Program-made: the position numbers and the translations under genes | Assembly: GCA_944389435.1 (NCBI GenBank) | Contig: CALXMI010000037.1 | Span: 1 to 42,145, forward strand | Length of the DNA: 42,145 bases | DNA from: an uncultured Opitutales bacterium | GTDB lineage: Bacteria > Verrucomicrobiota > Verrucomicrobiia > Opitutales > UBA9783 | Reading direction: 5' to 3' | In this document: positions 7,528-30,013 of the stretch, one piece after another | Layout: the number at the start of each line of letters is the position of its first letter | How positions within the stretch are numbered: position 1 is the stretch's first letter | Notes under the pieces: model-generated | Seen by the model: only the letters and a program-made list of their open reading frames with translations | The model's database searches: none | What the model was told of the DNA's origin: nothing

Positions 7528-7573
7528 CTATTTGAATGACGACGCTATGCGTCTTATTAAAGGAGGCAAATCA

Positions 7574-8476: not shown

Positions 8477-8502
8477 TGCTAATTTGAAAGGACAAATCAA
8501 TC

Positions 8503-9120
8503 ATGAAGAAAGAAAACAAAATACTGTACCTTTTTGTAATAGGAATTATTACAGCCCTTGCTATCATTTCCGGCATCTTTGTCGGTATAAGTGATATTCT
8601 CGTAAACAACAGATACAGCTTTGTCACAATCATTTTTGCTGCCGCAACCGCCGCAGTATGCTGTATTGTCGGCTACCGCGACAGCCGCCTTAATGCTTCA
8701 TATTTTAAGCAGTATACCGATGCCTCGGAAGAAGCGGGCAAATACAAAGAGCGTATGATGAAGGTTGCAGAAGAACGGGATTCGCTTAAATCACAGCTTG
8801 AATACTACACCTCCGGCACTGTTAAGGAGGAATACGAAAGGCTTAAAAGCAAATGTGAAGCCATCGAAGCCTTCCGCAACAGCTTTCCGTATAAAATCGC
8901 AGACGGATATATTCTTTATAACATTATGAGAACTAACCTGCAGGTCGGCAAAGCAAGTACCTGGCAGATTGTCGGCGACTTTAACGGAGATTTATGGGAG
9001 TGCAGTATCGTGCGGCCGCATACACAGTCGTATAAGGAACTCCTTACCCTTGTAGCTTCCACCAAAGAACCTAATGAGGTAGGCGCACTTAACCAGAGCG
9101 AAACCTTACTGTGGGAATAA
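8503..9120 (+). CDS. Membrane protein with two N-terminal TM helices and a coiled coil
   Basis: Two hydrophobic stretches followed by a charged helical region. Confidence 0.75.
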   Translation: MKKENKILYLFVIGIITALAIISGIFVGISDILVNNRYSFVTIIFAAATAAVCCIVGYRDSRLNASYFKQYTDASEEAGKYKERMMKVAEERDSLKSQLEYYTSGTVKEEYERLKSKCEAIEAFRNSFPYKIADGYILYNIMRTNLQVGKASTWQIVGDFNGDLWECSIVRPHTQSYKELLTLVASTKEPNEVGALNQSETLLWE

Positions 9121-9133
9121 GGAGTGTGTCAAT

Positions 9134-10951: not shown

Positions 10952-10954
10952 TAA

Positions 10955-12097: not shown

Positions 12098-12128
12098 TCT
12101 AACAACGAATATTGAAAGGACAACATTT

Positions 12129-14899: not shown

Positions 14900-15100
14900 T
14901 TAGTAAGTGCGAAATATTTTATTATTTTCTCCAAAAGTGAAATTGTATAATTTCGCATCTACAAAAAGACTGTAATGCGAAGCTATCCAATCTCTATAAT
15001 AGGGCGAATTTTTAGCTATAGTCAATCTGTTATATGTCCAACATTCTGTAACAGATTCTATATCATCAAATTTTAACGGCAACTCAAATGGATTAATCAC
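14900..15100 (-). pseudogene. Truncated paralogue of 13479-14546
   Basis: ELPLKFDDIESVTECWTYNRLTIAKNSPYYRDWIASHYSL aligns with KLPIHIEDVDSVTDCWIYNRLAIIKTSQYYRDWIASHYNL; GTG start with GGAG RBS; stops after 66 codons. Confidence 0.8.
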
Positions 15101-15464
15101 TATAAAACTCCTTTGTTGATAAAAATAAATCCGACATGCAAATGTATTGGTTTGAGACTTCTGGAACATAGTAATTTTTTACAAAGAAAAGCTCTCTTGC
15201 TGTTTTATTGACAAATATTTCTGCGGGATACGTTTTAAGCTAGAAATGTTTGCTGTTTTCTCCAAAGGCGACTTATATAATTTTTTATCTGCATATTCTG
15301 TAACGATTTATTCGTTGCTCATGCTTATTTGTGATTGTTGTTTATTTGTTATTTATAGCATCCTAAAATACAACTATTGTCAACATGCTGCCTATGTATA
15401 GCTCAACATGTCTTGAATACAGATGGCAATCATATTTTTATATCGAAGTGAGTACATATCCTCA

Positions 15465-15881
15465 TCACTTTAACAAACTAAATGATTTCGTGATTTGTTT
15501 AATTTGTAGTTCTTCACCAAATATTGCTATACCTATAGGATTAAGATCAAATAGACAACTTTCGGTAATTGTTTTTTTATATACATCAAATTTATTGTTC
15601 AACGCTTGCCCTTCTTCTGTGAATATAACTAAAACAATGTTGTTAGTTTCATTGGTTTTCTTTATCGTTGAACTCAATTTCAACATTTTACTTAGATTTG
15701 TTTTCAATACAATAACATTGCACCTGATTGCACTATGTATAAAATCTGTTTTATCACAAAGTAGGTGCGAATTGTAAATATCATCACAACACTTTGCTAA
15801 TTGCCCCATCAAAATAGACGCTATATTAGCCGACACTCCAGGAGAAAGTTTTTCATTTACAATAATTGCAACCCTATTCAC
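15465..15881 (-). CDS. DUF2000-like protein (PTH2-like fold)
   Basis: VAIIVNEKLSPGVSANIASIL...GIAIFG...ITKSFSLLK pattern; GTG start after ggaggt. Confidence 0.7.
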   Translation of the reverse strand: MNRVAIIVNEKLSPGVSANIASILMGQLAKCCDDIYNSHLLCDKTDFIHSAIRCNVIVLKTNLSKMLKLSSTIKKTNETNNIVLVIFTEEGQALNNKFDVYKKTITESCLFDLNPIGIAIFGEELQIKQITKSFSLLK

Positions 15882-16434
15882 AAAAACACCTCCCTGATTT
15901 ATTTGCAAAACATACCCAAGGCATTATTACGCTATTTCTTAATATAGCTATAATATTCAATCCAAAATGCTCTGCACATAGTTTATTTGTTATTGATATG
16001 CAATTTGCATCTTCGTCCTGAATAAGTTCCTTACAGGCTTCTATGTTCGAATTAACATAAACAACATCTAAATTATCAACTTGTATATTTATTTCTCTTA
16101 ATAACGAATTGGTTGCTTGATGAAGATAGATTTTATCTGTTTTATGTAAATTTATGTTAGTGTTTTTGCTAACACAAACCAGAGGAGGAAGAGACTCTAA
16201 GAAAACTTCTGTGGCAATTAATTTGTTATCCATAATAAACTCGCTTATATTTGAGTATGCTGCAGGAACCAATATGCAAGAAAGTTCTTTTCTTTTCAAA
16301 GCGTCGGCAGCCGCCTCAAAAGAGTGATATGGTATAATCTCGGAATTGACATTCCATCTTCTTGCTATATACATGGAACAAGTCAAAGAACCAGAAGAGT
16401 CTCCTAGTGTACCAACTTTACATTTACGGGTCAT
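15874..16434 (-). CDS. BacA-like prephenate decarboxylase (bacilysin/anticapsin BacA family)
   Basis: GTLG, SFE, LVPAAY, NS, ITN...GL and IMPWVCF match BacA motifs TLG, TFE, VPHAY, NS, LTN...GL and IPMSWSLF as I recall them. Confidence 0.65.
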   Translation of the reverse strand: MTRKCKVGTLGDSSGSLTCSMYIARRWNVNSEIIPYHSFEAAADALKRKELSCILVPAAYSNISEFIMDNKLIATEVFLESLPPLVCVSKNTNINLHKTDKIYLHQATNSLLREINIQVDNLDVVYVNSNIEACKELIQDEDANCISITNKLCAEHFGLNIIAILRNSVIMPWVCFANKSGRCFCE

Positions 16435-17138
16435 TTTGCATCCTCCGTGAAACTGTTTATACAAGCTCTTCGTTCATTTGTTATAGTCAAATTATATTGT
16501 ATAGGGCTATCAAAACAATCCGCATCAACCAATGTTGTGTGAAACTCACCATTTTCACCGAATGGATCTATTCCGATAGATTTAAAGTGCTGATATGCTA
16601 ATCGATCATATTTTTCCCCAAGCCACTTTGTATCTATGGATGGATGGTTAATTGTAGTAATTATACTTTTAATTTTTCTGTTTTCTAGTTCCGTTATCAA
16701 ATCGTCATACGGAACTAGATACAAAGGGAAACATGGAATCATGCCGGCACTCTTACATAATTTGACTTGTATTATTATATTATCTAATGAATTCAAGTCA
16801 CCAAAAACGACATATTTTACTCCTTGCCGGCAGAAATCTCTGTATAACTTCGTGATTTTATCCCAACGCACCCACCATTTGTAATTAACATATATTATTG
16901 GGATGCGAAGTTTTTGAGCTTGTATATCTATTAAGCTTTGTTTTTGCTCATGAAACAACGATTCATTTTTATCGCTATCTAAACAATGGATTAAACTAAC
17001 AGCTTTACCAACCTCTAATGCTTTGGAAAGAGCAAGGCCAGAATCTTTTCCTCCACTGTACATAAAAACGAACGATTCATTTGTCGGTAAATTTCTATAT
17101 GATAAAAGATTTTCTTTATCAATGACAGTATAGTTCAA
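16431..17138 (-). CDS. Diphthine-ammonia ligase-like PP-loop ATPase (MJ0570/Dph6 family)
   Basis: YSGGKDS, VFGD, WLG, DPFGENGEFHT. Confidence 0.85.
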   Translation of the reverse strand: MNYTVIDKENLLSYRNLPTNESFVFMYSGGKDSGLALSKALEVGKAVSLIHCLDSDKNESLFHEQKQSLIDIQAQKLRIPIIYVNYKWWVRWDKITKLYRDFCRQGVKYVVFGDLNSLDNIIIQVKLCKSAGMIPCFPLYLVPYDDLITELENRKIKSIITTINHPSIDTKWLGEKYDRLAYQHFKSIGIDPFGENGEFHTTLVDADCFDSPIQYNLTITNERRACINSFTEDAK

Positions 17139-17166
17139 TAATTTACACCTCTTATCTGTTTAATAT

Positions 17167-18945
17167 TTATCTATAATTCTCTGCTTGCTTACTAAACATC
17201 TCATAGTATTTGCCTCGTAGAGAGATCAACTCATCATGTGTGCCAACTTCTTTGACCCCCCCATCACCTATCAAATAAATTCTATCAGCGTTTCTAATAG
17301 TAGAAAGGCGGTGTGCAATGATAATAGTTGTCGATAAATTGCTACTGTCGAAAATAAGTTTTGTCATCTCATATTCTGCAATGGGATCCAATGCAGCTGA
17401 AGGCTCATCAAATATTAATAGTCCAAAATCCCCAGATAAAAGTCTTGCGATCCCAATCTTTTGAATTTCTCCTCCGGATAACATAATTCCGCCTTCATCA
17501 AATTCTTTCGTTACATTAGTGTGAATGCTTGCATTGTTTTTGATTAAAACATTTTTAAGATCCGCTCGCATTATAATATCGTGAACTTTTTTTTCGTCGG
17601 AATTATCATATATACACAGATTATCGGCAAAGGACATTGCATAAACATTTGTGTTTTGAAAAGCTACACCTATTCTTCGTCTCAAATCATTTATATCGTA
17701 GTTACGTATATCAACATCATTTATACATATGCTTCCTTTGTTAACATCATAAAACCGCATTAATAACTTAACTATTGTTGATTTTCCTACTCCATTTTCA
17801 CCTACTATAGCAATTTTTTCACCAGGATTGATTTTTAAATTTAAGTGATTTATTCGGAAATTTGAATTTTGATAATTAAAGGAGATATTGTTAAACGAAA
17901 TTTTAAATGCGCCCGTTGGAGCCATAATACCGGCATTTTTTTCTGTTTCTATGTAAGATTTCAGGTCGAAAAAATTTTTAATTCTTTTCGCATACATACT
18001 TAGACGATTTGCGTCTTTAACATAATAAAACATTTCATTTAACGCATTTTTTAAAGTTTCTACTGCTACCATCATAGTTATGTAAGAACCCACTGTTGCA
18101 ATATTTCCGGTATAAATACCATGCGCAATATTTAGAATAACGAATGTTCGCGCAATGTAAAACGTGAAGGTTCCTGTCAAAGCCCACGGAATCATTTTAA
18201 AAGCGAATTTCTTTATAACATTGATTTTCCCATCTTGGGCAGCATTGTATCCTGCGAACAGATAATCTTTTATATTGGTGCTTTTTAAATCTGCGGCATA
18301 GTTATTAGTATAGAAAACTCTATGATAATAATTCAGTTTTCTATCATATGGAATTATCTCCGTATCTTTTTTCACATCATAATAGTTTGTTAATATATGC
18401 ATTATATTCTCAACGATAGTCCCGATTATGGTGACAATCACAGCGATGGGACTTAATGTCGCAATAATAGAAAGCATTGAGATAATGGTTATAATGGAAG
18501 ACACCATTCGATTAACCATGTTTTGAGCATCGGCAGCTTTGGTTGCATACTCACTAACGGCCCATGTGTAACTATCGAAATACTCTGGATCATCAATATA
18601 TCTGTAATCCGTATTTATTGCCTTACGATAAGCGTTAAATTTCAACTGTGCATCAATCTGTGGTAACATTCTATTTTTGCAGAACATATTAAAAATATCT
18701 TCATAAACGGGCTGAAACATCAAAATTAACTGCATTAATATCACAATTAAACATATATCTTTAAAGGAATATCCCCCCTGTAACATATTGATAATTGTGC
18801 TCGGTAGATAGACCCCCACTAATTGAGCAATAGGTATTATTATTCCCCAAAAAAACAAAGAAAAAACTACAAACATTTTTCCATATTTCCAATATGGTTT
18901 GTATAGCCATGCTATATTCTTAATTGATTTAATTATTGTTTTCAC
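17167..18945 (-). CDS. ABC exporter (TMD plus NBD)
   Basis: TM helices, GENGVGKS, LSGGE, DEP, AHRLST. Confidence 0.93.
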   Translation of the reverse strand: MKTIIKSIKNIAWLYKPYWKYGKMFVVFSLFFWGIIIPIAQLVGVYLPSTIINMLQGGYSFKDICLIVILMQLILMFQPVYEDIFNMFCKNRMLPQIDAQLKFNAYRKAINTDYRYIDDPEYFDSYTWAVSEYATKAADAQNMVNRMVSSIITIISMLSIIATLSPIAVIVTIIGTIVENIMHILTNYYDVKKDTEIIPYDRKLNYYHRVFYTNNYAADLKSTNIKDYLFAGYNAAQDGKINVIKKFAFKMIPWALTGTFTFYIARTFVILNIAHGIYTGNIATVGSYITMMVAVETLKNALNEMFYYVKDANRLSMYAKRIKNFFDLKSYIETEKNAGIMAPTGAFKISFNNISFNYQNSNFRINHLNLKINPGEKIAIVGENGVGKSTIVKLLMRFYDVNKGSICINDVDIRNYDINDLRRRIGVAFQNTNVYAMSFADNLCIYDNSDEKKVHDIIMRADLKNVLIKNNASIHTNVTKEFDEGGIMLSGGEIQKIGIARLLSGDFGLLIFDEPSAALDPIAEYEMTKLIFDSSNLSTTIIIAHRLSTIRNADRIYLIGDGGVKEVGTHDELISLRGKYYEMFSKQAENYR

Positions 18946-19786
18946 TTTCTGTCATTCCTTGGTAAAATAAAAAATTAGTAATCGCTATAAAATTATTCGT
19001 ATTACGGTAAGCAACTTCATAAACTTTTGTGTTTTTTAGAAGATTGTTTATATCTTGAAATAGCGTACACATATCTTTAGAATGTCTTACATTATTGATA
19101 ATTGTTTTAAAAGCTTCACTTTTATCTAGTTTGCGTACGAAATCATTTTCGTTGTTGTACTTAGGCAATATTACTACGTCTATATTGTGCACACTAGGAC
19201 TTGTCTTTGGGGGATAATAAATTGTTCGCATTGTTTCTCCATCAAAAGTCTCACCCACCATATTGCTTTCCATCAATTGATCAACATTTTCTCTCACGGA
19301 AATAGGCATATTAAATCCGATATACTTACTTTTAGAAATATAAACGCAATCGTCGTCTATGTATTCTGCGTGCAAAACCAACGACAAATAGCTTGTTAAT
19401 GTTGTTTTACCGGATTTTCTTTCTCCTATCAATAAAATATTTTTATTGTTTAATCTCACACAAGAACCATGAATAATTGTACAATTCAAAATATTTGCAT
19501 ACCAATCTTCTAAAGCCCCAATTAATTGAAAAGCAAAGTGCTTGTCAATTGCATTGCAAAAAATACGATAGGGTGCTTTGTCGATGCATTTTTTGAAGGT
19601 GTTTCCAGAAACTATTTCTAACGCAATATCATTATCCGTGCTTTCATTTTTTGTATCTAAAAAAGTTTTTTTATAAGTGGAAAGCAAAGTTTCAAACAAA
19701 CCAACATTTTTCAAATAAAGGTTTTTGTCTATATGTAGTTTTAATGTAGTGTCATTAATGGTCCGCTTAAAATAAAGCACGATCAT
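18929..19786 (-). CDS. HPr kinase-like P-loop kinase
   Basis: IHGSCV, GERKSGKTT, YIDDD. Confidence 0.75.
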   Translation of the reverse strand: MIVLYFKRTINDTTLKLHIDKNLYLKNVGLFETLLSTYKKTFLDTKNESTDNDIALEIVSGNTFKKCIDKAPYRIFCNAIDKHFAFQLIGALEDWYANILNCTIIHGSCVRLNNKNILLIGERKSGKTTLTSYLSLVLHAEYIDDDCVYISKSKYIGFNMPISVRENVDQLMESNMVGETFDGETMRTIYYPPKTSPSVHNIDVVILPKYNNENDFVRKLDKSEAFKTIINNVRHSKDMCTLFQDINNLLKNTKVYEVAYRNTNNFIAITNFLFYQGMTESENNN

Positions 19787-19798
19787 TCTCCTTATCTT

Positions 19799-20098
19799 TT
19801 AAACGTATTCTTTGATTAGTTCTTCGCAACAGAACTCTTTCAAAATTTTATTTACATCATCAAGCAAGCTTATATTTGTTTTTTGCGGTGCATATGTGGA
19901 TATAATTTTTTCACAAATATATTGGCTGCTGATATCTAAATTTTGTTCATTTGCCTCATTAAGAATATTCCAAATAAAAGAAGCGGATTGATTTAAAGAA
20001 ATTATACGCTTGCGTTGCTTGTCGTATGCAACAATCTCGTTCTCTATATTTTCTATTTCAAGTTTCGTTAATATCATTTCTTTGCCGTTAATTTTCAT
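19799..20098 (-). CDS. PqqD family RiPP recognition element (RRE)
   Basis: IVAYD...IISLNQSASFIWNIL...DDVNKILKEF...LI; about 100 aa, next to a radical SAM gene. Confidence 0.85.
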   Translation of the reverse strand: MKINGKEMILTKLEIENIENEIVAYDKQRKRIISLNQSASFIWNILNEANEQNLDISSQYICEKIISTYAPQKTNISLLDDVNKILKEFCCEELIKEYV

Positions 20099-20108
20099 AA
20101 TTATACTC

Positions 20109-21461
20109 CTAATTGCTTGTTAATTTATAAACAGAATTTTTTCCAAAAAGAACGTTGTCGACTAATTCAGCTTTCCAACCAAAGCATGTATTTCCACAAA
20201 GAATCTCGGTAAATACATACGACCAGTACTTTCGAATTAATTGACACTCATAATCCCTGTATTTTGTATCAAAGGCATTGTCTCTCACAACCTTTAGCGG
20301 ACAGCCGCCTTTGCAAAAACGATACGCTATACATCCTCTGCACTCATCAAAAGAATTCTTCACCACATCTAAATGTTGATCGGTATAGCTGTTATAAAAA
20401 TCCACCATATTGTCTTTTATTTCGGCAACGATGGTTTTGAACTGCTCGGCCTCAATACAGTTGATAATTTTTCTATCTGGCATCAGCCAAAAACATTCTG
20501 CAAATGTAGCTCCGCAACAGTATTCTGCAATAGTATTATTAAATATCGGTGTAGAAATATATAACTTGTAATTCTTTTCCTTTGCGTAGTTATGTAAGTT
20601 CACATAATGGTGAAAGAAATCGTATTTTTCTATGTTGTATTGATCTTTGTTGCCGTTTTTTAATGCACGCCCAGACGGAATTATTGGCATAATGCTCCAC
20701 TCGTTTATACCAGAACTGTTGTTTGCAATGTTATCACAAATTTGCTTGAGGTTTTCAAAGTTTTCATACCAAACAGTTGATCTTACCGTTAGTGAGCGTC
20801 CGCTTTGGCTAAAGTCTTGAAGAGTTTTTTCGACGACTGGAGATGAATTTGTTGTGTCAGAACATTTTCTGTTTCTGTTTTGCAAAAAAGATGTTCCATC
20901 ATACGACAACATAATTTTGTCAAAATGTTTAATTATAAATTTTCTCTGAGAGTTATTAAGCATTCCATTTGTCGTTAATTCAAAATAATAAGGCACAGAG
21001 CAGTTATCACAAAGATTTTTTATGGCACGTATTGACTCTTTAAACAACTCCCAATTAAATGTAGGCTCACCACCTCCCGTGAAAAAGAATCGCAAAGGTT
21101 CAGAATCATCGTTCTTATCAATAAATTGATATATTTTCCTCTTTTTAATTGCTTCTTTAACAAAAACGAGAATATCTTTCACTGACAGTAAGTCCTGATT
21201 TCCGCTGGTTGAAGAATAACTACAGTAATTACACCTTAATTGACAATTGTATGTCAAACATATACCAATCAAATTTATTGGCTTGTTTTTGGCAGACATT
21301 TTTGTTTTATCTAATTTATCTAAACAACTTTTTAATTCTTCATAATTATCAGTTTTTCTACAAATAGTATTTATTTCGGTTATTACGCTTTGTGCTGCGT
21401 CTTTGGGATAAAATATCAGTCTTTCCGAGTCGAAAATATAATTGCCTATATAGTGGTACAT
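20109..21461 (-). CDS. Radical SAM/SPASM peptide maturase 1
   Basis: CQLRCNYC, GGGEP, TTNG, SYDG; SPASM cysteines CCGA...NC...CRGCIAYRFCKGGCP...EC; ATG 21461 after ggagg. Confidence 0.9.
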   Translation of the reverse strand: MYHYIGNYIFDSERLIFYPKDAAQSVITEINTICRKTDNYEELKSCLDKLDKTKMSAKNKPINLIGICLTYNCQLRCNYCSYSSTSGNQDLLSVKDILVFVKEAIKKRKIYQFIDKNDDSEPLRFFFTGGGEPTFNWELFKESIRAIKNLCDNCSVPYYFELTTNGMLNNSQRKFIIKHFDKIMLSYDGTSFLQNRNRKCSDTTNSSPVVEKTLQDFSQSGRSLTVRSTVWYENFENLKQICDNIANNSSGINEWSIMPIIPSGRALKNGNKDQYNIEKYDFFHHYVNLHNYAKEKNYKLYISTPIFNNTIAEYCCGATFAECFWLMPDRKIINCIEAEQFKTIVAEIKDNMVDFYNSYTDQHLDVVKNSFDECRGCIAYRFCKGGCPLKVVRDNAFDTKYRDYECQLIRKYWSYVFTEILCGNTCFGWKAELVDNVLFGKNSVYKLTSN

Positions 21462-21480
21462 AAACGCATCTTCCTCCAAA

Positions 21481-21512
21481 TAGATGGTGTAAATAGTTCT
21501 AGACACCATTTA
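21481..21512 (-). promoter_or_regulatory. Hairpin between precursor P1 and the radical SAM RBS
   Basis: TAAATGGTGT/ACACCATCTA stem (one mismatch) with a 12-nt loop. Confidence 0.6.
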
Positions 21513-21535
21513 TATATATATTTCTTATGATAGCA

Positions 21536-21640
21536 CTATGAGTTCGTCTTGCCGGTAGGACAACACGATGCAGCGCGAGCCTCAATAGCACGAAGTTCTT
21601 CTTCGTCATACACTACGATAGCAGGTGTTTCGTATACCAT
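21536..21640 (-). CDS. Putative RiPP precursor peptide P1, 34 aa (not in ORF track)
   Basis: MVYETPAIVVYDEEELRAIEARAASCCPTGKTNS; RBS agaggaggg; YxxP leader motif; first gene of the rSAM/RRE operon. Confidence 0.88.
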   Translation of the reverse strand: MVYETPAIVVYDEEELRAIEARAASCCPTGKTNS

Positions 21641-21786
21641 AATTTCCCTCCTCTCTCATTCATTCTAATATGTTTTTGGTTCGCTAGAACTATTTACTGA
21701 GTTTAAACGATAAATAATACCGAGTTACAATCCATTAGCAAAATCCGTGCATTTTTAAAAACAATTGTAAGTTTGTTCCGTATCAG

Positions 21787-21815
21787 ATTATAATATAACA
21801 GTTTATATTTGTCAA
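21787..21815 (-). promoter_or_regulatory. Consensus sigma-A promoter for cluster 1
   Basis: TTGACA (21815-21810), 17-bp spacer, TATAAT (21792-21787). Confidence 0.85.
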
Positions 21816-21960
21816 TATTTCGTTTAGTGATTTTAAAAAATAAAATAAAAAAACGTCAAATTGTAGCCATTTTGTAGATAATCTCTTGATTTTTGATAGA
21901 ATAAATGTTATTATATTCAAAAAGCATCGTTTGGTTGTTTTAGGTTTTGCTTCTTAACAT

Positions 21961-21997
21961 AGAAAAGGAACCGTCGACCTTACGGCCGACGGTTCCT
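21961..21997 (-). terminator. Intrinsic terminator after P2
   Basis: 11-bp stem aggaaccgtcg/cgacggttcct followed by a short T run on the minus strand. Confidence 0.75.
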
Positions 21998-22009
21998 CAG
22001 AAAATTTTA

Positions 22010-22120
22010 TTATCTGAAATCTCCGGCGAAACATTGTCCGGATCTTGCAGCTGCTTGAATATGTTTTGCCAACTCTTTGGCACTCAATTCTACAACCACA
22101 GGCTTAACCCATTTTTTCAA
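22010..22120 (-). CDS. Putative RiPP precursor peptide P2, 36 aa (not in ORF track)
   Basis: MKKWVKPVVVELSAKELAKHIQAAARSGQCFAGDFR; TTG start overlaps the regulator TGA; RBS aagggggg; double TAA then terminator; leader resembles P1. Confidence 0.82.
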   Translation of the reverse strand: MKKWVKPVVVELSAKELAKHIQAAARSGQCFAGDFR

Positions 22121-23181
22121 CTAAATCCCCCCTTATCTTTATAATATTTTTCTAACATACCGCATAGGGTCTGAAAGTACTGTTTATTAATGCTGTAAAG
22201 AATGGTTCTCCCGCGATTTCGCGTCTTAAGCATACCAGCTTTTATCATTAAAGATAGATGGTAATAAGCATTTGTTCCAGTAAATCCGAATTCTTGCTCC
22301 AAATCTTTTATTGTTATTTCTTCTTTTTCATATATCAAGTTCAAAACCGAAACTCTGTTTGATTCAGAAATTGCGTTTCCGAAATTTTCAAGCTCTGGCA
22401 ATCTAAACTGAACAGTCAAATAATTGATATGTTCAATATAATCAATACCTAATAATATTACAACTTCATTTGAATAATAGTGTGTTTTAACACAATTCTT
22501 ATGATATAAGCAGAACGTGATGTAAATATCGTCAAAACAAGAAAAATCGCCTTTTTGATTTTTCGTTTGCATAAGTTGGTTTAAAACAATATCAAAATCA
22601 AAATTATCTTTAAGTTCACTCAATAATTTATGTTTTGCATCATACTTTTGAGATAACGCAAAACTTTTCTCCATCAACTCATATGACAGTTTGTGGATAA
22701 CCGTTTCAGGCTCTATAAAGAACGAATATAACGCACTTTTAATTTCACCGCTATATGTGGAATTTTTGATGAACTTATTAACATAGGTTATCGAGTCCTT
22801 ACATTTTATGACATCTTCTTCGCGAATATCCTTAAAGTAGAATCTAATAATATTCTCTTTTACCTTTTCGTGATTGGATAATTCTTCTTGCACCATAGAG
22901 AGATTATAATTTTCAAAAACAAAATGTGCTTTATATGGCTCGTAATAATATTTAGTTATTACATTCTTTTTGTCTTCTGTGAAATAGAAAAACAAAAGAA
23001 GCTCATCTGAAATCGGTGAAAATTCATTTAGTATTTTACTGTAATAGTCAGTATCTTCACTTGATTTACTATAGTTTATGAAATTTGTCAGACAATAATC
23101 CTTGTTAAAATTAAAAGCAAATAAGAAAAAAAGGTCGTATATAAAGCCGGGTTCATCAAGAAATTTAATATTTCTCATCAC
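22117..23181 (-). CDS. Transcriptional regulator: large N-terminal domain plus C-terminal ArsR-like wHTH
   Basis: NRVSVLNLI...ITIKDLEQEFGFTGTNAYYHLSLMIKAGML...GRTILYSIN. Confidence 0.85.
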   Translation of the reverse strand: MMRNIKFLDEPGFIYDLFFLFAFNFNKDYCLTNFINYSKSSEDTDYYSKILNEFSPISDELLLFFYFTEDKKNVITKYYYEPYKAHFVFENYNLSMVQEELSNHEKVKENIIRFYFKDIREEDVIKCKDSITYVNKFIKNSTYSGEIKSALYSFFIEPETVIHKLSYELMEKSFALSQKYDAKHKLLSELKDNFDFDIVLNQLMQTKNQKGDFSCFDDIYITFCLYHKNCVKTHYYSNEVVILLGIDYIEHINYLTVQFRLPELENFGNAISESNRVSVLNLIYEKEEITIKDLEQEFGFTGTNAYYHLSLMIKAGMLKTRNRGRTILYSINKQYFQTLCGMLEKYYKDKGGFS

Positions 23182-23203
23182 CGTATCCTCCTTAACTTCG
23201 TTA

Positions 23204-23232
23204 ATTGTAGCACACTTTTTTTATAAAATCAA
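23204..23232 (-). promoter_or_regulatory. Probable promoter of the regulator-P2 operon
   Basis: TTGATT, 17-bp spacer, extended -10 TGcTACAAT. Confidence 0.55.
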
Positions 23233-23300
23233 TTTATTTTTAGTGAACAACTAAAAATATAATAAAACCAATGTTTAAGAAACATACGAAAGGCATAAAT

Positions 23301-23609
23301 ATGATAGGGAAAAAGTTAAAGAGAAGCAGAATATCCGCAGGTTTAACCCAACAGCAGTTGGCAGAAAAAATTGGAATTAGCAGAAGTGCGGTTTCCAAAT
23401 ACGAATGTAACAAGTTGCGACCAAGCCTTAAAGTAAAGGCCAAACTTTGTTTGCGTTTGGATGATTGTGCCGATTTCTTATTAGCCTCCAACTCTCGAAA
23501 GCACGACAAAGTTTCCGTGTCCTCTCAGCCCCTTTCACCCGAAGAAATCAATAATATAGCAGAATTAATTAAAGAATGGACTTCGGAAGAATACCGTCTA
23601 TTTCCCTAA
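23301..23609 (+). CDS. XRE-family HTH regulator
   Basis: LKRSRISAGLTQQQLAEKIGISRSAVSKYE...P. Confidence 0.85.
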   Translation: MIGKKLKRSRISAGLTQQQLAEKIGISRSAVSKYECNKLRPSLKVKAKLCLRLDDCADFLLASNSRKHDKVSVSSQPLSPEEINNIAELIKEWTSEEYRLFP

Positions 23610-23640
23610 CAGAAAAAACAAGAAATATGCATTTTTAGAA

Positions 23641-23859
23641 TTGCAGCAATCATTAAAGAAATCTCTACCCAAAACAGTAACCGAAGCAATAGTTTTTCCT
23701 AACAATAATGCATATTGGATATGCCCAAATTGCAAATGCTCTTTTGAAAGAGAGTACCAATCGTATTGTGACAGATGTGGACAACGATTAAAGTGGATCG
23801 CTTTAAGAAAAGTTAAATATATACTAATAAAACCACCAAATAATAAAAAATATTTTTAG
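23641..23859 (+). CDS. Zinc-ribbon protein (possibly the C-terminal part of the XRE gene via a +1 shift)
   Basis: CPNC...CDRCGQRLKW; no clear RBS; frame open back across the XRE stop. Confidence 0.65.
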   Translation: MQQSLKKSLPKTVTEAIVFPNNNAYWICPNCKCSFEREYQSYCDRCGQRLKWIALRKVKYILIKPPNNKKYF

Positions 23860-23898
23860 TCATTGGCAAATTATAAATCGCAAATCAGGGAGAATATT

Positions 23899-24708
23899 AT
23901 GTTAACGATAGCCATACACGCACCATTCCAAACAAGCTTTACCATAAAAACCAACTGCAAAGAGTTAGCAAATGCAATTGTGTTAAGGCACGGTAAATAT
24001 GCAACTAAAAGTACAACTCAATCAGATATTACAATTATCGCTGAAAAAGAACAATCAGGTTATAGCATATACTTTAACGGCAATTCTGTAAAAACAAATG
24101 CTCCCTTAAAAAAAATAGAAGACATTATGTATGACAACCGTAAATATGAAGAAACAATATTTGCCGTTCACGGCGGTGCTGTAGAATACAATAATGGCGC
24201 ATATCTTGTTGTTGCCTCCACTACAAGCGGAAAAACCACCCTTACATCATATCTAGTTTCAAACGGTTTTGGATATATTACTGATGATTGCATACTTCTT
24301 GACCGTGAAAGCTTTAAAATATATCCGTTTACAACTCCCCTGCATTTGCGCAAAGGCGGTTATAACGCTCTGAAAGCTTTAGGTTGTGCCCCTGAAAGCT
24401 ATGATTTTTTAGACTCGGTTTCCATTAAAAGATATGTTTATACGCCTAATAATTCTGTTTCAAAACCGCTGCCGCTTAAAAAAATATTTTTTATCACAAG
24501 AACGGAAGATACGAATATGATAGAAGAAATGAATACCACAGAAAAAATAACCGCTCTTCTCAAATCGCCTATTACTGAATATGAAATTGGCGGCAGTTAT
24601 CTTTCGTTTATTTCCAAACTGTCCGCTATTCCCTGCAAAAGGCTTTATTACAGCAATATGGATTTTGTCGCCGAGGTAATTAAATATGAACAACAATCTT
24701 ATAATTAA
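23899..24708 (+). CDS. HPr kinase-like P-loop kinase 2
   Basis: VHGGAV, ASTTSGKTT, YITDD. Confidence 0.75.
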   Translation: MLTIAIHAPFQTSFTIKTNCKELANAIVLRHGKYATKSTTQSDITIIAEKEQSGYSIYFNGNSVKTNAPLKKIEDIMYDNRKYEETIFAVHGGAVEYNNGAYLVVASTTSGKTTLTSYLVSNGFGYITDDCILLDRESFKIYPFTTPLHLRKGGYNALKALGCAPESYDFLDSVSIKRYVYTPNNSVSKPLPLKKIFFITRTEDTNMIEEMNTTEKITALLKSPITEYEIGGSYLSFISKLSAIPCKRLYYSNMDFVAEVIKYEQQSYN

Positions 24709-25405
24709 AATTCTGCCTGCTGTTTTAAAAACCAAAGGACAGGCAGAACTCACTGTAACAGGGACGAGCATGGAACCGACTCTAATTGAAGGTGATTTGA
24801 TAACAATCATAAAGTGTGATAATTACACAATCGGCGATATTCTTGTTTTTGACTATAAAAACGAGGGGCTTCTGGTTCACAGATTACTAAAAACATCCAA
24901 CCGATACTTCTGTAAAGGCGATAATTCTTTTAGGCTTGAAGATATGCCTGCAGAAAACATTATTGGAAAAGTCACAGCTGTAAACGGAGTTCCAATTGCC
25001 GTTTGGCAAAAATGGAAAATGGATTTGTCTTATGCTGTCAATCGATCATTTGTTAAATCAAAATATGATATTACAAATACAATGCAGACAGATATATATA
25101 AACTGTATTCAGCCTTAATTTTAGGAAAAGAGGAAAACAAAATGAATTACAAGAAAACAGATAAAATGGACTTTATTCTTTCAGATGAAACTTCACTTGC
25201 CGTATTTGATCCGGAAAGCAACAATACATACTTTTTTGACGAAACCGGGATAGACATTCTAAATTGTCTTGACATCCCTTGTGATATTGAAATGCTTTTA
25301 GATATGCTTTGCAATATTTATTCAGCATCCCCTGAAGATATCAGGGCAGATGTTGAAGAATTCTTAGCAGATACAGTAACCAAAGGAATTGTTGAAATAG
25401 TATGA
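24686..25405 (+). CDS. S24/S26 signal peptidase-like domain fused to a C-terminal PqqD/RRE
   Basis: GTSMEPTL..GD, VHRL, KGDN; C-terminal 87 aa PqqD-like (FDPESNNTYFFDETGIDIL...DVEEFL...GIV). Confidence 0.85.
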   Translation: MNNNLIIKILPAVLKTKGQAELTVTGTSMEPTLIEGDLITIIKCDNYTIGDILVFDYKNEGLLVHRLLKTSNRYFCKGDNSFRLEDMPAENIIGKVTAVNGVPIAVWQKWKMDLSYAVNRSFVKSKYDITNTMQTDIYKLYSALILGKEENKMNYKKTDKMDFILSDETSLAVFDPESNNTYFFDETGIDILNCLDIPCDIEMLLDMLCNIYSASPEDIRADVEEFLADTVTKGIVEIV

Positions 25406-26448
25406 ACATTAAAACCGTTTATGTTGAAATAACTAATTTCTGCAACTTAAATTGTATCACTTGCTATAACCGATCGGGCTTAAACTGTCAAAGAACAGAA
25501 TTGTCATTTGAACAAATCGAGAATATTATCAAACTTTTTACGCCTTTAGGATTGAAAAGATTTTTATTATCAGGTGGAGAACCTACACTGCATTCCGAAT
25601 TTGACAAAATTCTTGATTTAATCGATAAATATCCAAAAATTAATTTTGGTATTGTTACTAACGGAACAAATCATAATAAAAAGCTATTAGAATGCCTTAA
25701 CTCAAGAGACAATTTAAAACTTCAGATAAGTCTTGACGGTTCCTGTGAAGAAATAAATTCCAAAACCCGCGGTATAGGCAATTTCAAAAAGACCTTAAGC
25801 TTTGCCAAACAAATACGCACCGCTCATAATATTCCTCTGCTTAAAATGGTCATATCACAAGGCAATTATGACGATGTAGAAAATTTCTGCAATTTAGCGA
25901 TTTCATTAGGCTTTACACCTGAACTTGCATTTATATACAAATCCGGAAACGGGTGTGACGAATGGGGCACTAAAGAGCTTACATCCATACAAAAATTAAA
26001 AATATTGAAACTTGTCGAGCGCATTAATAAAGAAAGAAATGCAGGTATATTTCTTCCAATCTGCACCACAAAATGTCCGTTAGCAGAAGGAATCAATGAA
26101 CTTTCTTTCTGTATTAAAGTAGACGGTTCAATTCAACCATGTCAATCCCTTTACAGTGAAAAATATACTGTCGGAAATGTTCTTTTCTTCGATAAAAAGC
26201 TATTTTTACAGAATATAAATAATATTTCCGATTTAGCAAGGCAGCGTTGTGAACAAGACTATGGCTGTGAAAAATGTATGCTGAATGACATTTGCGGCAG
26301 AGGATGCATGGCAGAAGCTGTAAATCTTCACGATAATCCATTTGCAAGTGACGGCAACTGCGAATATAGAAAACAACAATTTATTAACTTTAATCTAAAA
26401 GGAGGTATATCTGTACTTGAAAAAGAAGACAAAACATTCCACGCTTAG
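25402..26448 (+). CDS. Radical SAM/SPASM peptide maturase 2
   Basis: CNLNCITC, SGGEP, TNG, SLDG; SPASM CP...DGSIQPC...CEKCMLNDICGRGC...C. Confidence 0.9.
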   Translation: MNIKTVYVEITNFCNLNCITCYNRSGLNCQRTELSFEQIENIIKLFTPLGLKRFLLSGGEPTLHSEFDKILDLIDKYPKINFGIVTNGTNHNKKLLECLNSRDNLKLQISLDGSCEEINSKTRGIGNFKKTLSFAKQIRTAHNIPLLKMVISQGNYDDVENFCNLAISLGFTPELAFIYKSGNGCDEWGTKELTSIQKLKILKLVERINKERNAGIFLPICTTKCPLAEGINELSFCIKVDGSIQPCQSLYSEKYTVGNVLFFDKKLFLQNINNISDLARQRCEQDYGCEKCMLNDICGRGCMAEAVNLHDNPFASDGNCEYRKQQFINFNLKGGISVLEKEDKTFHA

Positions 26449-28228
26449 CAACAATTTATACATACTGAAACAAATACATATTGCAAGCCGCGGAAGAATA
26501 TTTTTTGAACTTTCGAGTATTATACTAAACACCGTTTCAAATATACTACTTGATGTTTATATGTTCAAATATATTATTAATGGTATTCAAAAGGGCTTAG
26601 ATTTTAAAAGACTTGTCGGTTTTATCCTGATTATTACGGCGTTTCATATTTTCACCGCTACCGTTGTCGACTATTTTTGGGAAAAATTCGCACCTGTCTC
26701 GAATCAAAAAATATATAGCCATATTCAAAAAAACTTGTTCGAAAAGGCCTCGTCTGTCGAGTTTGCCTGCTTTGAAGACCCTGACTTTTACGATAAATAT
26801 GTTAAAGCAATAAGCGAAGCATACAATAGAACCAATGAGGTTCTAAGGTCGTTGTGCGACATTGTATATTTTATTTTTAACGCTTTTGCTACCTCGTTTA
26901 TCATATTTACAATTGATCCCGTGCTGATAGTATTCGCGCTGATACCCTTTATTGTAAGTATTCTGTTCGGGAAAAGGCTTAACAAAGTGCGATACAATTA
27001 CACTATGGAAATGCAGGAAAAATCCAGAAAACGCGACTATGTAAAAAGGGTGTTTTACCTTGCCGACTACGCAAAGGAAATGCGGCTCACGAATATAAAC
27101 AGGGTTATGTTCAAAAAATTTTACGAGGCGATAAAGGAGCTTAAGGGGGTTATTAAAAAGCACGGGCTTAAGGTTGCGTTATTGGATTATTTGTTCATAG
27201 CGGTTAATGATATTATCGTTTACCTCGGCGCTATTCTATATTCCGCCTATAAAACCCTTGTTTCAAAAACAATGCTTTACGGCGACTGCGTGGTTGTTAT
27301 AAACGGAATAAACAATGTCGCGTGGTCACTGCGCAATATGGCTGATGTTTTTATTCAGTTTCAGAATCACTCGCTTTATATCGACAATCTGCGCTATTTC
27401 CTTGAATACAAGCCCGCAATTTATGAAAACAGGGAGGGACTCGACCCGCCCGATACCTGCGCGCTCACCCTTAAAAACGTAAGCTTTAAATACGCAGGTC
27501 AGGAAGATTATTCCCTTAAAAATATTAATTTCACAATAAAGCAGGGCGAAAAAATCGCCTTGGTCGGTCACAACGGCGCGGGTAAAACCACCCTTGTTAA
27601 GCTGTTAATGCGGCTTTACGATGTGACCGAGGGCGAGATACAGCTAAACGGCAGACCGATAAAGGAATACAAGCTTAAAGGCTACCGTAATCTGTTCTCG
27701 GTTGTGTTTCAGGATTTCAAGGTCTTCGCCGTATCGGTTTTGGAAAATATTTTGCTTAAAGCAGATATTACTAAGGAAGAAAAAAATCGCGCGGTAAGCG
27801 GTATGAAGGACGCGGGTATTTATGACAAGGTAATGTCCCTTGAAAAGGGCTATGAAACCGTGCTTACAAAGGAATTTGACGAAAACGGAGCGGTGCTTTC
27901 GGGCGGAGAGACCCAGAAAATCGCTATATCAAGGGTGTTTGCAAGGGACTGCCCCATCGCGATTTTAGACGAGCCTTCAAGTGCGCTTGACCCGCTGGCG
28001 GAGTACGCCATGTACGAGGCTATGATGAATGCGTGCAGGGACAAGGCGGTAATCTTTATTTCCCACAGGCTTTCCTCCGCGGTTTTGGCGGACAGGGTTT
28101 ACCTTATGGAAAAGGGAGAAATAATTGAAAGCGGCACCCACCGAGAGCTGCTCGAAAAGGGCGGCAAATACGCCGATATGTGGAGCAAGCAGGCGGAAAA
28201 ATACCGTAAAAAGGAGGAAGATGTATGA
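26417..28228 (+). CDS. ABC exporter subunit 1 (TMD plus NBD)
   Basis: GHNGAGKT, LSGGE, LDEP, SHRLS. Confidence 0.93.
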   Translation: MKKKTKHSTLSNNLYILKQIHIASRGRIFFELSSIILNTVSNILLDVYMFKYIINGIQKGLDFKRLVGFILIITAFHIFTATVVDYFWEKFAPVSNQKIYSHIQKNLFEKASSVEFACFEDPDFYDKYVKAISEAYNRTNEVLRSLCDIVYFIFNAFATSFIIFTIDPVLIVFALIPFIVSILFGKRLNKVRYNYTMEMQEKSRKRDYVKRVFYLADYAKEMRLTNINRVMFKKFYEAIKELKGVIKKHGLKVALLDYLFIAVNDIIVYLGAILYSAYKTLVSKTMLYGDCVVVINGINNVAWSLRNMADVFIQFQNHSLYIDNLRYFLEYKPAIYENREGLDPPDTCALTLKNVSFKYAGQEDYSLKNINFTIKQGEKIALVGHNGAGKTTLVKLLMRLYDVTEGEIQLNGRPIKEYKLKGYRNLFSVVFQDFKVFAVSVLENILLKADITKEEKNRAVSGMKDAGIYDKVMSLEKGYETVLTKEFDENGAVLSGGETQKIAISRVFARDCPIAILDEPSSALDPLAEYAMYEAMMNACRDKAVIFISHRLSSAVLADRVYLMEKGEIIESGTHRELLEKGGKYADMWSKQAEKYRKKEEDV

Positions 28229-30000
28229 AAGAAAAGGGCAGCGTACTGTTTATGATTAAGCAAGCCGTAAAATATGTTCCCTCCTTCTGTCTCTTTACAG
28301 TTGCGGAGGGTGTTGTTTGGGGCTGTATACACTCCTTTACAAGTACGCTCTTTATAAAGGCGCTGTTTGACAGAATAGAAAGCGGCGTCCCCTATTCTGA
28401 AATACTCCTGCTTGTCCTTGCTATGGCGGTTTTTCTTATTTCAGCCTACATATTCCACGAATGGTACTGGCAGTTTATAGAGCCGAAAGCGCGGCAGGAG
28501 CTGCACAAAAAAATGCAGGAGCAGCTATACAAAAAAGCGGCTTCCATAGACCTTGCCTGCTATGACCGCCCCGACTTTTACAACGACTTTGTCTGGGCGA
28601 TTAACGAGGCGGACTCAAGAACAATCGCAATATGTGAGGACATAGGCAAAATAATAAACCGCCTTATCACATCGGCGGTTATAATAGGCGTTTTATTCAC
28701 GATAGATTTGTGGATTGTGGCGGCGGTGCTTTTTTCGGTTGTCTTCAGCGTAGTTTTGCAAAGACTTATTACAAAAATTTATTTTAAGCGCGACAACGAG
28801 CTTAAACCCTTTCAACGCAGGGCTGAATATATAAGCAGGGTTCACTATCTTGCGGACTATGCAAAGGAAATCCGAATGAGCGAAGCCGAGGACTTACTCT
28901 TAAAGAATTTTGACACGGCTGTAGGAAGCAATATTTCAATAACCAAGTCCTACGGCAATAAGCTGTTTTTTCTGAATCTTACAAGAACCACCTTTACCGC
29001 CGTAATGTTTGACGCGGTTATTACAATACTGCTACTTTATAAGATGATGATAGAAAAATCCGTAACTCTCGGCGGATTTGCCGCCACATTCAGCGCTATG
29101 TGGAAGCTTTTTTGGACGCTTAATAATCTTATGGATTATTTTGCAAAATTCAAGGAGCATAAGCTTTATGCTAACAAGTTCAGGGTGTTTCTTAATTACG
29201 AGCCAACCGTGTGCGATAAGGAGGGTTGTACCGAATTAACCGCCCCGTTTAAGACCCTTGAGCTTAAAAATGTCTCCTTTGCCTACCCTGAAGCCGAAAA
29301 AAACATAATAAACGGCATAAATATGACCGTAAAGGCGGGGCAAAAAATCGCCCTTGTTGGCTACAACGGTGCGGGCAAATCAACCCTTGTAAAACTGCTT
29401 TTAAGACTATATGATGTTTCAGGCGGCGATATTTTTATAAACGGCAAGAGCATTAAGGATTACACCCTTTGCTCCTACCGAAACAAATTCGGTACCGTTT
29501 TTCAGGATTTTCAGCTCTACGCCGCCGATATTGCCGAAAACGTCCTTACCGACGAATATTCCGAAGAAGACCAGTCCCGCGTACTTGAAGCCCTTAAAAA
29601 CAGCGGATTTGAAGAAAGGCTTTCTTCCCTTAAGGAGGGTATTCACACACCGCTTACAAAGGAATTTGACCAAAGCGGAATTAACCTTTCGGGCGGCGAG
29701 GCGCAAAAAGTCGCAATATCAAGGGTGTTTGCAAAGGACTGCGAGATAGTTATTTTAGACGAGCCCTCAAGCGCACTCGACCCTATGACCGAATACGAAT
29801 TAAACAATACTCTGATGACCGCCCTTGACAAAACGGTTATAATAATTTCCCACCGCCTTTCTACGACCCGTATGGCGGACGTTATCTATATGCTTGAAAA
29901 CGGCGAGATTATTGAACAGGGCAGTCACGACGAGCTTATGCAAACGGGCGGCAAATACGCCGAAATGTTTTTAAAGCAGGCGGAAAAATATAATTTTTAG
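28225..30000 (+). CDS. ABC exporter subunit 2 (TMD plus NBD)
   Basis: GYNGAGKS, LSGGE, LDEP, SHRLST; ATGA overlap suggests a heterodimer. Confidence 0.93.
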   Translation: MKEKGSVLFMIKQAVKYVPSFCLFTVAEGVVWGCIHSFTSTLFIKALFDRIESGVPYSEILLLVLAMAVFLISAYIFHEWYWQFIEPKARQELHKKMQEQLYKKAASIDLACYDRPDFYNDFVWAINEADSRTIAICEDIGKIINRLITSAVIIGVLFTIDLWIVAAVLFSVVFSVVLQRLITKIYFKRDNELKPFQRRAEYISRVHYLADYAKEIRMSEAEDLLLKNFDTAVGSNISITKSYGNKLFFLNLTRTTFTAVMFDAVITILLLYKMMIEKSVTLGGFAATFSAMWKLFWTLNNLMDYFAKFKEHKLYANKFRVFLNYEPTVCDKEGCTELTAPFKTLELKNVSFAYPEAEKNIINGINMTVKAGQKIALVGYNGAGKSTLVKLLLRLYDVSGGDIFINGKSIKDYTLCSYRNKFGTVFQDFQLYAADIAENVLTDEYSEEDQSRVLEALKNSGFEERLSSLKEGIHTPLTKEFDQSGINLSGGEAQKVAISRVFAKDCEIVILDEPSSALDPMTEYELNNTLMTALDKTVIIISHRLSTTRMADVIYMLENGEIIEQGSHDELMQTGGKYAEMFLKQAEKYNF

Positions 30001-30013
30001 GAAGTGTACGAAT

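Follow-up and report, generated by a model that had tools for sequence, protein, structure and literature searches.

The locus described here raises the question of whether a 34-codon open reading frame (ORF), named P1, encodes the precursor of a ribosomally synthesized peptide with post-translational modifications (RiPP), and which modifications the genes around it would install. P1 lies on the minus strand of a 42,145-nucleotide stretch of DNA from an uncultured Opitutales bacterium (assembly GCA_944389435.1, contig CALXMI010000037.1, positions 1 to 42,145), the whole of which is called the window in what follows. Judged from its sequence, P1 is a real, conserved gene for a RiPP precursor, and what it yields is probably a phosphorylated peptide of 11 residues with a Cys crosslink, released by cleavage at an AxA site. 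Here it is proposed, as a reasonably probable reading, that P1 passes through a phosphopeptide pathway of the type of the paeninodins or of the linear polyphosphorylated peptides (LPPs; LppA/K/B/S/D/N of Paenibacillus alginolyticus, Popov et al., Nat Commun 2026, PMC13381572), onto which a radical S-adenosylmethionine (rSAM) crosslinking step has been grafted.

The P1 gene and its precursor family

The gene, its signals and the two proposed parts of its product, all on the minus strand, are the following.

21640 to 21536, minus strand: P1 precursor gene, 34 codons plus stop, translated as MVYETPAIVVYDEEELRAIEARAASCCPTGKTNS*
21815-21787, minus strand: promoter TTGACA-17 nt-TATAAT, identical to the consensus at 12 of 12 positions
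21652-21646, minus strand: Shine-Dalgarno site AGGAGGG (AGGAGG at 21652-21647), 5-6 nt ahead of the ATG
21998-21965, minus strand: terminator-like 15-bp hairpin with a T-run, at the end of the unit upstream of P1
21572 to 21640, minus strand: putative leader, residues 1-23, with the motif Y3-x-x-P6-x-I8 for a RiPP recognition element (RRE) and the peptidase site A21-R22-A23
21539 to 21571, minus strand: putative core ASCCPTGKTNS, residues 24-34, with Ser25 (candidate phospho-site), the C26/C27 pair and Ser34

A preliminary description of this DNA had singled out the ORF for its 34 amino acids, its strong ribosome-binding site, its consensus promoter and its first place in an operon, together with a YxxP motif (Y3, P6) and the tail SCCPTGKTNS (residues 25-34), and all of these are present as described; the minus strand is added here. 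The promoter is the only 12 of 12 match among the 45 promoter-like sites found in 15000-24000, a total which is not itself raised (shuffle mean 46.7). Since the hairpin at 21998-21965 closes the upstream unit, P1 is the first gene of its own transcription unit. Neither the spacer between P1 and the rSAM gene rSAM1 (z -0.25) nor the 5' untranslated region (z +0.43) folds better than shuffled sequences, so no attenuator or riboswitch is claimed for P1, and Rfam gave no matches anywhere in the window.

The orthologue at locus L009, in an Acetatifactor metagenome-assembled genome (MAG), is 74% identical to P1 and has the core ASCCPTGKTNS unchanged. The 32 base differences between the two genes fall 4/6/22 on codon positions 1/2/3, with 15 synonymous and 9 non-synonymous codons. 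Four single-nucleotide polymorphisms were found over a 1-kb stretch in two independent metagenome assemblies, the sole one within the P1 ORF being synonymous (21575 G>A, CGC>CGT). P1 had been called unannotated, which holds in that it has no assigned function; its exact 34-residue sequence is already present in the public protein collection (NCBI and ENA), and the L009 orthologue is deposited as 'hypothetical protein' on 128 contigs. A search for paralogues of P1 in its own genome returned one match, P1 itself.

Scans of species genomes and metagenomes gave 58 loci taken here as belonging to the family (L002-L021, L081-L118), with hosts that are mostly gut Clostridia and Bacilli and also include Planctomycetes, Treponema, Chitinispirillales and Methanocorpusculum. 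The 112 relatives of rSAM1 in the database, none of them functionally named, include a Nitrososphaerota archaeon by database name. The rSAM tree comprises the window and 32 loci, leaving out duplicates or near-copies (L082, L083, L090-L094, L096, L097, L099, L101, L102, L105, L109), partial rSAM genes (L021, L103, L106-L108, L111-L115, L117, L118) and remote relatives under about 27% identity (L022-L080, L119-L160). P1 is conserved near rSAM genes: of the 33 non-redundant loci, 30 carry a short leader-motif ORF with a Shine-Dalgarno site just upstream of the homologous rSAM gene. When a strict filter asked for [YW]xxP near the N-terminus, a Shine-Dalgarno site and one Cys or more, such an ORF was recovered in 19 of the 33, at 0.88 per kb versus 0.012 per kb elsewhere in those loci. 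L014 has a kinase gene and no precursor, its contig offering just 680 nt upstream.

A phmmer search over 1.84 billion cluster representatives added three further members of the family, P0124-P0126 (E 2e-9 to 2e-4). The six closest precursors (window, L009, L002 and P0124-P0126) all have the pattern E-A-x-A-x-S-(x)-C-C-P-x-G-x-x-N-S, in which Asn33 and Ser34 are invariant. Over 25 aligned precursors the leaders share M-x-Y-x-K-P-x-h-x-V, with Y3 and P6 at least 90% conserved, and C27 is the sole invariant column. Most cores of the family read C-x-C-[TAS]-x-[GS]-x-[SA]-[KR]-x, without Pro, and the CCPTGKTNS of P1 is a sub-type of this core, bridged by L013 (…GCKCATGKSTHT). NCBIfam and Pfam have no model for these precursors (0 of the 25 match a precursor family meaningfully); the match of one of them to lasso_leader_L3, at E 0.5, was rejected as noise. 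Multi-core precursors with two or three repeats of the type ...AC[KH]C[TA]xGxx[KR]..., with conserved linkers between them, were seen in termite-gut-type MAGs and metagenomes (L004 5575-5886, L084 533-778, L085 606-818).

The proposed maturation pathway and its alternatives

Five further genes of the window would serve P1 directly.

20109 to 21461, minus strand: rSAM1, radical SAM/SPASM maturase of 450 residues, its start taken as the second in-frame ATG
19799 to 20098, minus strand: PqqD1, a discrete RRE of 99 residues (PF05402, 26.1 bits versus a cut-off of 23.4)
18929 to 19786, minus strand: HprK1, an HPr-kinase-like P-loop kinase of 285 residues, from TIGR04352, profile and fold matches
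17167 to 18945, minus strand: ABC1, an MsbA-type ABC exporter, from family matches
24686 to 25405, plus strand: signal peptidase of the SipW/archaeal type fused to a second RRE (PqqD2), the sole candidate leader peptidase in the window

In the proposed pathway, the discrete RRE PqqD1 would bind the P1 leader via Y3-x-x-P6-x-I8 and present the peptide to rSAM1, which would modify the C26/C27 pair, most likely by linking it within the peptide, as a thioether, to a residue a few positions downstream. HprK1 would phosphorylate a Ser, most likely Ser25, fixed at 22 residues from the RRE-bound Tyr, with Ser34 as the alternative. The signal-peptidase-like enzyme would then cut at A21-x-A23, and ABC1 would export the modified peptide of about 11 residues.

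The first step draws on the leader and on PqqD1. The motif [Y/W]xxPx[L/V/I/F/A] has been shown to bind an RRE in the LPP paper (PMC13381572), and the best PDB match of a PqqD1 profile is the lasso RRE TbiB1, over the full length, at E 0.0028. With the conservation of Y3 and P6, these matches uphold the earlier assignment of P1 as a precursor with a leader of the type that lasso-type RREs bind. Searched against the PDB as single sequences, PqqD1, HprK1 and the PqqD2 domain had no significant match, the matches coming from profiles only (PqqD1 and HprK1). Wherever a locus offers enough sequence, the rSAM gene is nearly always followed by one for a PqqD protein. A predicted complex of PqqD1 with P1 was rated 'weak support', with a score of 0.46 against 0.01 for the best control, runs agreeing in at least 93% of contacts and a partner pLDDT of at least 61. 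In a set of 80 solved complexes 58 passed the mark applied, as did 2 in a set of 110 mismatched pairs, and scores up to 0.60 were had by just 7 of those 80 and by both mismatches. Because RRE-leader complexes have already been solved, this pass may come from memorised structures, and the prediction is taken to indicate likeness more than binding.

AxA is the classic signal-peptidase -3/-1 rule, and cleavage of P1 is therefore placed after A23, although the boundary between leader and core could sit one residue earlier, in which case Ser25 would stand at core +3, as in LPPs. This site was missed in the preliminary description, as was a WxxP-type precursor 370 nt upstream of P1. The peptidase matches TIGR02228 (E 1.4e-13) and Peptidase_S24/S26, and L009 and L002 have stand-alone orthologues of it within the P1-type operon.

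In rSAM1, the CX3CX2C motif (C73, C77, C80), the SPASM motif CX2CX5CX3C (C374, C377, C383, C387) and the additional C316, C335 and C406 are invariant over 42 homologues, and the protein passes the SPASM model TIGR04085 (30.2 bits versus a cut-off of 27). Its top NCBIfam matches are PapB (E 1.8e-24), CcpM (E 1.7e-18) and SCIFF (E 1.5e-17), with the anaerobic sulfatase-maturating enzyme (anSME) at E 3.1e-14; it belongs to no curated maturase family (PapB, SCIFF/CteB, CcpM, lachnocin, StsB and others), all matches being far below cut-off. The best PDB matches are anSME (4k37, E 1.8e-10) and CteB (2.2e-10). The invariant C27 argues for Cys chemistry, and a Cys thioether is a plausible outcome and our first choice among the chemistries considered.

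The kinase assignment of HprK1 draws on several lines, each weak alone. It matches TIGR04352 at E 8.6e-6 (25.1 bits versus a cut-off of 200), and the top PDB match of its profile is the HPr kinase 1ko7 (E 3.8e-4). An AF2 model (pLDDT 88.9) matches the folds of phosphoenolpyruvate (PEP) carboxykinase and HPr kinase/phosphatase at E 3e-7 to 1e-4, with template-modelling scores of 0.53-0.61 for PEP carboxykinases and, for HPr kinases, 0.30-0.32 on the query and 0.45-0.50 on the target; the two enzyme groups share a fold. The string H-G ... G-x-x-x-S-G-K-T is invariant in 11 homologues of HprK1.

A hidden Markov model made from the kinases found one in 14 distinct clusters among the family loci: the window, L002, L009, L012 (= L099), L014, L015, L017, L018, L020, L087 (partial), L098, L104 (= L105), L116 and L118. 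The kinase gene directly follows the RRE gene inside the P1-type operon in the window, L009, L002, L098, L118 and others, and the peptidase was found in most kinase-carrying loci. The presence of a kinase goes with a particular Ser in the precursor, by Fisher tests that ignore shared ancestry. The pattern A.A.S just ahead of the first Cys is present in 10 of the 12 precursors linked to a kinase versus 0 of 14 without one (p 1.2e-5), the relaxed [AVSG].A.S in 11 of 12 versus 0 of 14, and a Ser exactly 22 residues after the leader aromatic, which is Ser25 in P1, in 12 of 12 versus 1 of 13 (p 2.7e-6), L085 being excluded from this last comparison as an ORF without a leader start. In L116 the AxA has moved by one residue and the Ser is still at aromatic+22. 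Kinase presence changes at least 5 times on the rSAM tree, so HprK as the mark of one clade was rejected, as was AxAxS as a general family feature, given its absence from all 14 kinase-less precursors.

The preliminary description had placed phosphorylation at the C-terminal Ser, which is found in 6 of 12 kinase-linked precursors versus 2 of 14 without a kinase (p 0.09). Set against the position of Ser25, this does not favour the earlier choice, and Ser25 is the more likely phospho-acceptor on these alignments.

Several points weigh against the pathway as proposed. All of its chemistry is deduced from sequence. rSAM1 is remote from all characterised enzymes (86.6 bits against PapB versus a cut-off of 340), the sequence evidence for HprK1 is weak, and the fold search puts PEP carboxykinase above HPr kinase. 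The association of kinase and Ser comes down to just 3 independent contrasts on well-supported branches, all concordant (sign test p at least 0.25), and four of the loci counted as lacking a kinase have 2.7-3.5 kb of downstream sequence, with the kinase of L012 and L104 lying about 4.8 kb downstream. Because kinase and peptidase co-occur, the Ser could be a determinant for the peptidase rather than a phospho-acceptor. The peptidase of the window, and a frameshifted nucleoside triphosphate (NTP) transferase gene described below, stand in the divergent operon and not in that of P1. Finally, Ser34 is invariant in the six closest relatives.

This last point belongs to the version of the pathway given in the preliminary description, a ranthipeptide-type S-Cγ/Cβ thioether between Cys27 and Thr32 combined with phosphorylation of Ser34 as in paeninodin. 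Thermocellin has a Cys-x4-Thr spacing and paeninodin a C-terminal Ser. Asn33 is as invariant as Ser34 in the six precursors, position 32 has a β-branched residue in every one of them (T, T, I, T, V, T, all carrying a γ-methyl), and the ranthipeptide maturase PapB is the top family match of rSAM1. The link is S-Cγ in thermocellin and S-Cβ in freyrasin (PMC10114670). The Cys-x4-Thr argument is not borne out in that form: Thr32 itself varies among the six, and S or A is aligned with it in the wider family; T, I or V at this position fits a γ-methyl acceptor and equally a Cα link blind to the side chain. The C-terminal Ser is missing from half of the kinase-linked precursors, namely L087 and L098 (Y), L012 and L104 (R), L020 (I) and L116 (G). 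We consider this version unlikely.

Rather less likely again is that rSAM1 performs a chemistry other than thioether formation, such as oxidation of Cys26 to formylglycine in the manner of anSME, an epimerisation, or formation of a C-C or C-O crosslink. Sulfatases have the motif C-x-P-x-R, which the C-C-P-x-G of P1 resembles, and anSME is the top PDB match of rSAM1, level with CteB, and also one of its NCBIfam matches, among which no cut-off is reached. The thioether maturases PapB, CcpM and SCIFF outscore anSME, however, and the Pro is limited to the CCPxG sub-family, most relatives having C-x-C-[TAS]-x-G. The sole invariant column of the 25 precursors is a Cys, as in thioether RiPPs.

It is improbable that P1 is crosslinked by rSAM1 without being a kinase substrate, with HprK1 and a second kinase, HprK2, acting on the WxxP precursor or another molecule and AxAxS being purely a site for the peptidase. 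Kinase and peptidase are nearly always found together, so that co-variation cannot separate them, and in LPPs the residues F-3, E-2 and T-1 matter for cleavage (PMC13381572). Against this, HprK1 is encoded within the P1 operon, its gene coming directly after that of the RRE, and in L116 the AxA shifts while the Ser stays, as if the Ser itself were positioned. Substitutions in the LPP core from A1 to N5, including Ser3, the phospho-acceptor, left cleavage unimpaired (PMC13381572).

That P1 is an open frame arisen by chance, or a remnant without function, as its very short length and the lack of a family model (0 of 25) might suggest, can be dismissed almost entirely, being contradicted by the 4/6/22 third-position bias, by a position, Shine-Dalgarno site and motif kept in relatives from several phyla and archaea, and by the 72-fold enrichment of such ORFs upstream of the rSAM gene.

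Comparison with LPPs and other RiPP systems

The proposed P1 pathway is closest to that of the LPPs, whose core gene set comprises a signal peptidase I (SpI)-like peptidase, a discrete RRE, a kinase like HprK, an NTP transferase and an exporter like MsbA (PMC13381572). All five types are found in the window, within 17167-32247, the peptidase being fused to PqqD2 and the transferase frameshifted into two parts; L009 and L002 have a stand-alone peptidase and a transferase flanking the P1-type operon or within it. The LPP kinase adds several phosphates to core Ser3, near the cleavage site, and the RRE presents the leader to the SpI-like peptidase, which cuts the unphosphorylated precursor poorly (PMC13381572). 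Similarly, the P1 leader starts with YxxPx[V/I] and has a conserved Ser 2-3 residues past its proposed cleavage site. In the LPP system, a Tyr or a Trp in the motif sets which of two co-resident RREs binds, the LPP or the lasso one (PMC13381572), and the window likewise has adjacent RRE pathways with a Y-leader and a W-leader.

The differences from LPPs begin with the radical SAM/SPASM gene directly after P1, LPPs having no cyclising or crosslinking enzyme; the main text of PMC13381572 does not use the words radical, rSAM or SPASM. Because of this enzyme in the operon and of a short core with Cys, the P1 product is probably not linear, unlike an LPP. The LPP consensus YxxPxVLxHQxIxFETxxS is not matched, the P1 family having ...[IY][EK]AxAxS in place of VLxHQxIxFET, and the distance from Tyr to Ser is 18 residues in LPPs and 22 in the P1 family. 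The hosts of LPPs are Bacilli, whereas those found here are gut MAGs of the Clostridia type.

With lasso peptides of the paeninodin type the P1 system would share a [Y/W]xxP leader recognised by a B1-type RRE (TbiB1 as top match), here with predicted binding, and it also has an HprK-like kinase, an NTP transferase for tailoring and an ABC exporter. Neither a lasso cyclase (Asn-synthetase-like) nor a transglutaminase-like B2 cysteine peptidase was matched among the ORFs of at least 80-90 residues scanned in 13-36 kb. P1 lacks the Thr at the penultimate leader position, and in the P1 family the Ser that goes with the kinase lies close to the core N-terminus rather than at the C-terminus.

As in the ranthipeptides and sactipeptides (PapB/freyrasin, CteB/thermocellin, SCIFF, CcpM), there is an rSAM/SPASM enzyme with the full set of auxiliary-cluster cysteines, a short Cys-containing core and an RRE-dependent leader. 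The RRE of the P1 system is a separate protein of the lasso/LPP type and not an N-terminal domain, and to our knowledge no kinase or signal-peptidase partner is known for ranthipeptides or sactipeptides. The core motif of freyrasin is CxxxD, and the C-(x)-C-x-x-G of the P1 family is unlike both this and SCIFF. The likeness to anSME consists of the best PDB sequence match of rSAM1 and of C-C-P-x-G, which faintly recalls C-x-P-x-R; anSME has neither an RRE nor a leader system, and conservation of the Pro does not extend across the P1 family. The literature search found no paper combining a radical SAM maturase with either an HprK-like kinase or a leader protease of the signal-peptidase type, subscription journals and supplements being outside the search; Supplementary Data 1-2 of PMC13381572 (SpI homologues and co-occurring domains) could contain such clusters.

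Neighbouring genes, a second precursor and the genomic setting

The remainder of the P1 operon, the divergent operon and the second precursor contribute the following features.

16431 to 17138, minus strand: Dph6-like ATP pyrophosphatase (PF01902)
15874 to 16464, minus strand: prephenate-dehydratase-like (PDT-like) protein, from a family match
15465 to 15908, minus strand: DUF2000 protein, from a family match
22120 to 22010, minus strand: second precursor, WxxP type, TTG start, followed by the terminator at 21998-21965
23863 to 24708, plus strand: HprK2, second HprK-like kinase, first gene of the divergent operon
25402 to 26448, plus strand: rSAM2, second radical SAM/SPASM enzyme, from family matches, of a family unrelated to rSAM1
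31107 to 32247, plus strand: NTP_transf_5 (PF14907) nucleotidyltransferase, LppN-like, split over two frames

Among L002-L021, the Dph6-like, PDT-like and DUF2000 genes occur only with CCPxG-type cores, the window and L009 having all three and L002 lacking DUF2000. Their products would add a tailoring specific to this sub-family, and one conceivable reaction on the peptide is an ATP-dependent amidation or ligation. The two NTP_transf_5 ORFs (31107-31679 and 31564-32247) overlap and cover profile positions 41-124 and 137-248, and L009 matches the family in one frame; the split may be a frameshift, a pseudogene or an assembly error. The divergent plus-strand operon also holds two ABC exporters and an acyl carrier protein (ACP)-FkbH protein.

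The second precursor encodes MKKWVKPVVVELSAKELAKHIQAAARSGQCFAGDFR, with a WxxP leader, an AAA-R-S site and one Cys. It has the Shine-Dalgarno site AAGGGGGG ahead of its TTG, and its ORF overlaps the stop codon of an ArsR-like gene; its exact sequence was not found in the public protein collection. In L012 a similar W-peptide lies after an ArsR gene and directly before HprK2, peptidase-PqqD2, rSAM2 and ACP-FkbH, in this order and on one strand. Because of this gene order, in one independent homologue only, the W-peptide is probably the substrate of the second pathway.

The ArsR-like regulators at 22117-23181 and 35873-36817, both on the minus strand, bracket the cluster. They are paralogues (32% identical) with a C-terminal ArsR/SmtB helix-turn-helix and an N-terminal domain of about 250 residues without a family match, and the same type lies upstream of the L012 W-peptide. 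A 355-residue protein (13479-14546, minus strand) has no Pfam or NCBIfam match and was not found in L002-L021; its neighbours in a language-model atlas are clusters with BtrH_N, DUF4872 or Peptidase_C39_2 in 11-22% of their members (score 0.97), which is only a lead towards a papain-like peptidase or acyltransferase. The ORF of 89 residues beside it (14900-15169, minus strand) looks like a copy of its N-terminus. The far end of the cluster holds a NACHT/STAND NTPase of 1132 residues (32271-35669, plus strand; PF05729, E 6e-7), which has hydrophobic stretches near both ends.

The GC content of the cluster (about 13.5-36.8 kb) is 0.27-0.34 versus 0.42-0.46 in the flanks (1-13100 and 36900-42145), which encode a type IV secretion system coupling protein (PF02534), RepA_N, a resolvase, a DnaG-zinc-finger/DUF3854 primase-like protein, DUF6744 and an SMC-like ATPase. 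With this low GC content and such flanks, the cluster looks like the cargo of a conjugative element; the plasmid collection had no near match to 15400-23200. Near-identical DNA was found in 20 runs from 12 studies, with labels that include chicken, bovine and pig gut, faeces, manure and terrestrial metagenomes; one of these runs may be the source of the window. The assembly holding the window has 0.95 Mb in 125 contigs and is rated 87.6% complete, which makes it a very small genome or an odd bin.

Taken to its full extent, the proposal would define an undescribed RiPP class: an 11-residue peptide, rSAM-crosslinked via its Cys pair, (poly)phosphorylated at a Ser placed by a 22-residue 'ruler' from the RRE-bound Tyr and released by a signal-peptidase-type protease, in a mobile two-lane cluster in which a Y leader would lead P1 to PqqD1/rSAM1 and a W leader the second precursor to PqqD2/rSAM2, with one shared peptidase. 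This fuller form is possible and held only tentatively, with the odds against it. If true, it would extend the rule of Y/W discrimination between LPP and lasso RREs to radical SAM RiPPs.

Radical SAM RiPPs and the RiPPs phosphorylated by HprK-like kinases (paeninodins and LPPs) have so far been treated separately, and the P1 locus joins both. The same holds for its relatives in gut Clostridia, Bacilli, Planctomycetes, Treponema and methanogens. With its 34 residues, P1 is a very small and easily synthesised substrate for studying how one lasso-type RRE serves an rSAM enzyme, a kinase and a protease. The system also bears on whether phosphorylation gates cleavage, as in LPPs, and on whether Y and W leaders insulate two co-resident radical SAM pathways, and the fixed spacing from Tyr to Ser makes a testable prediction of a 'molecular ruler'. 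Because the conjugative-element-like island that carries the cluster occurs in gut and faecal metagenomes of chicken, cattle and pig, the product of the P1 pathway may have a role in competition or signalling in gut communities.

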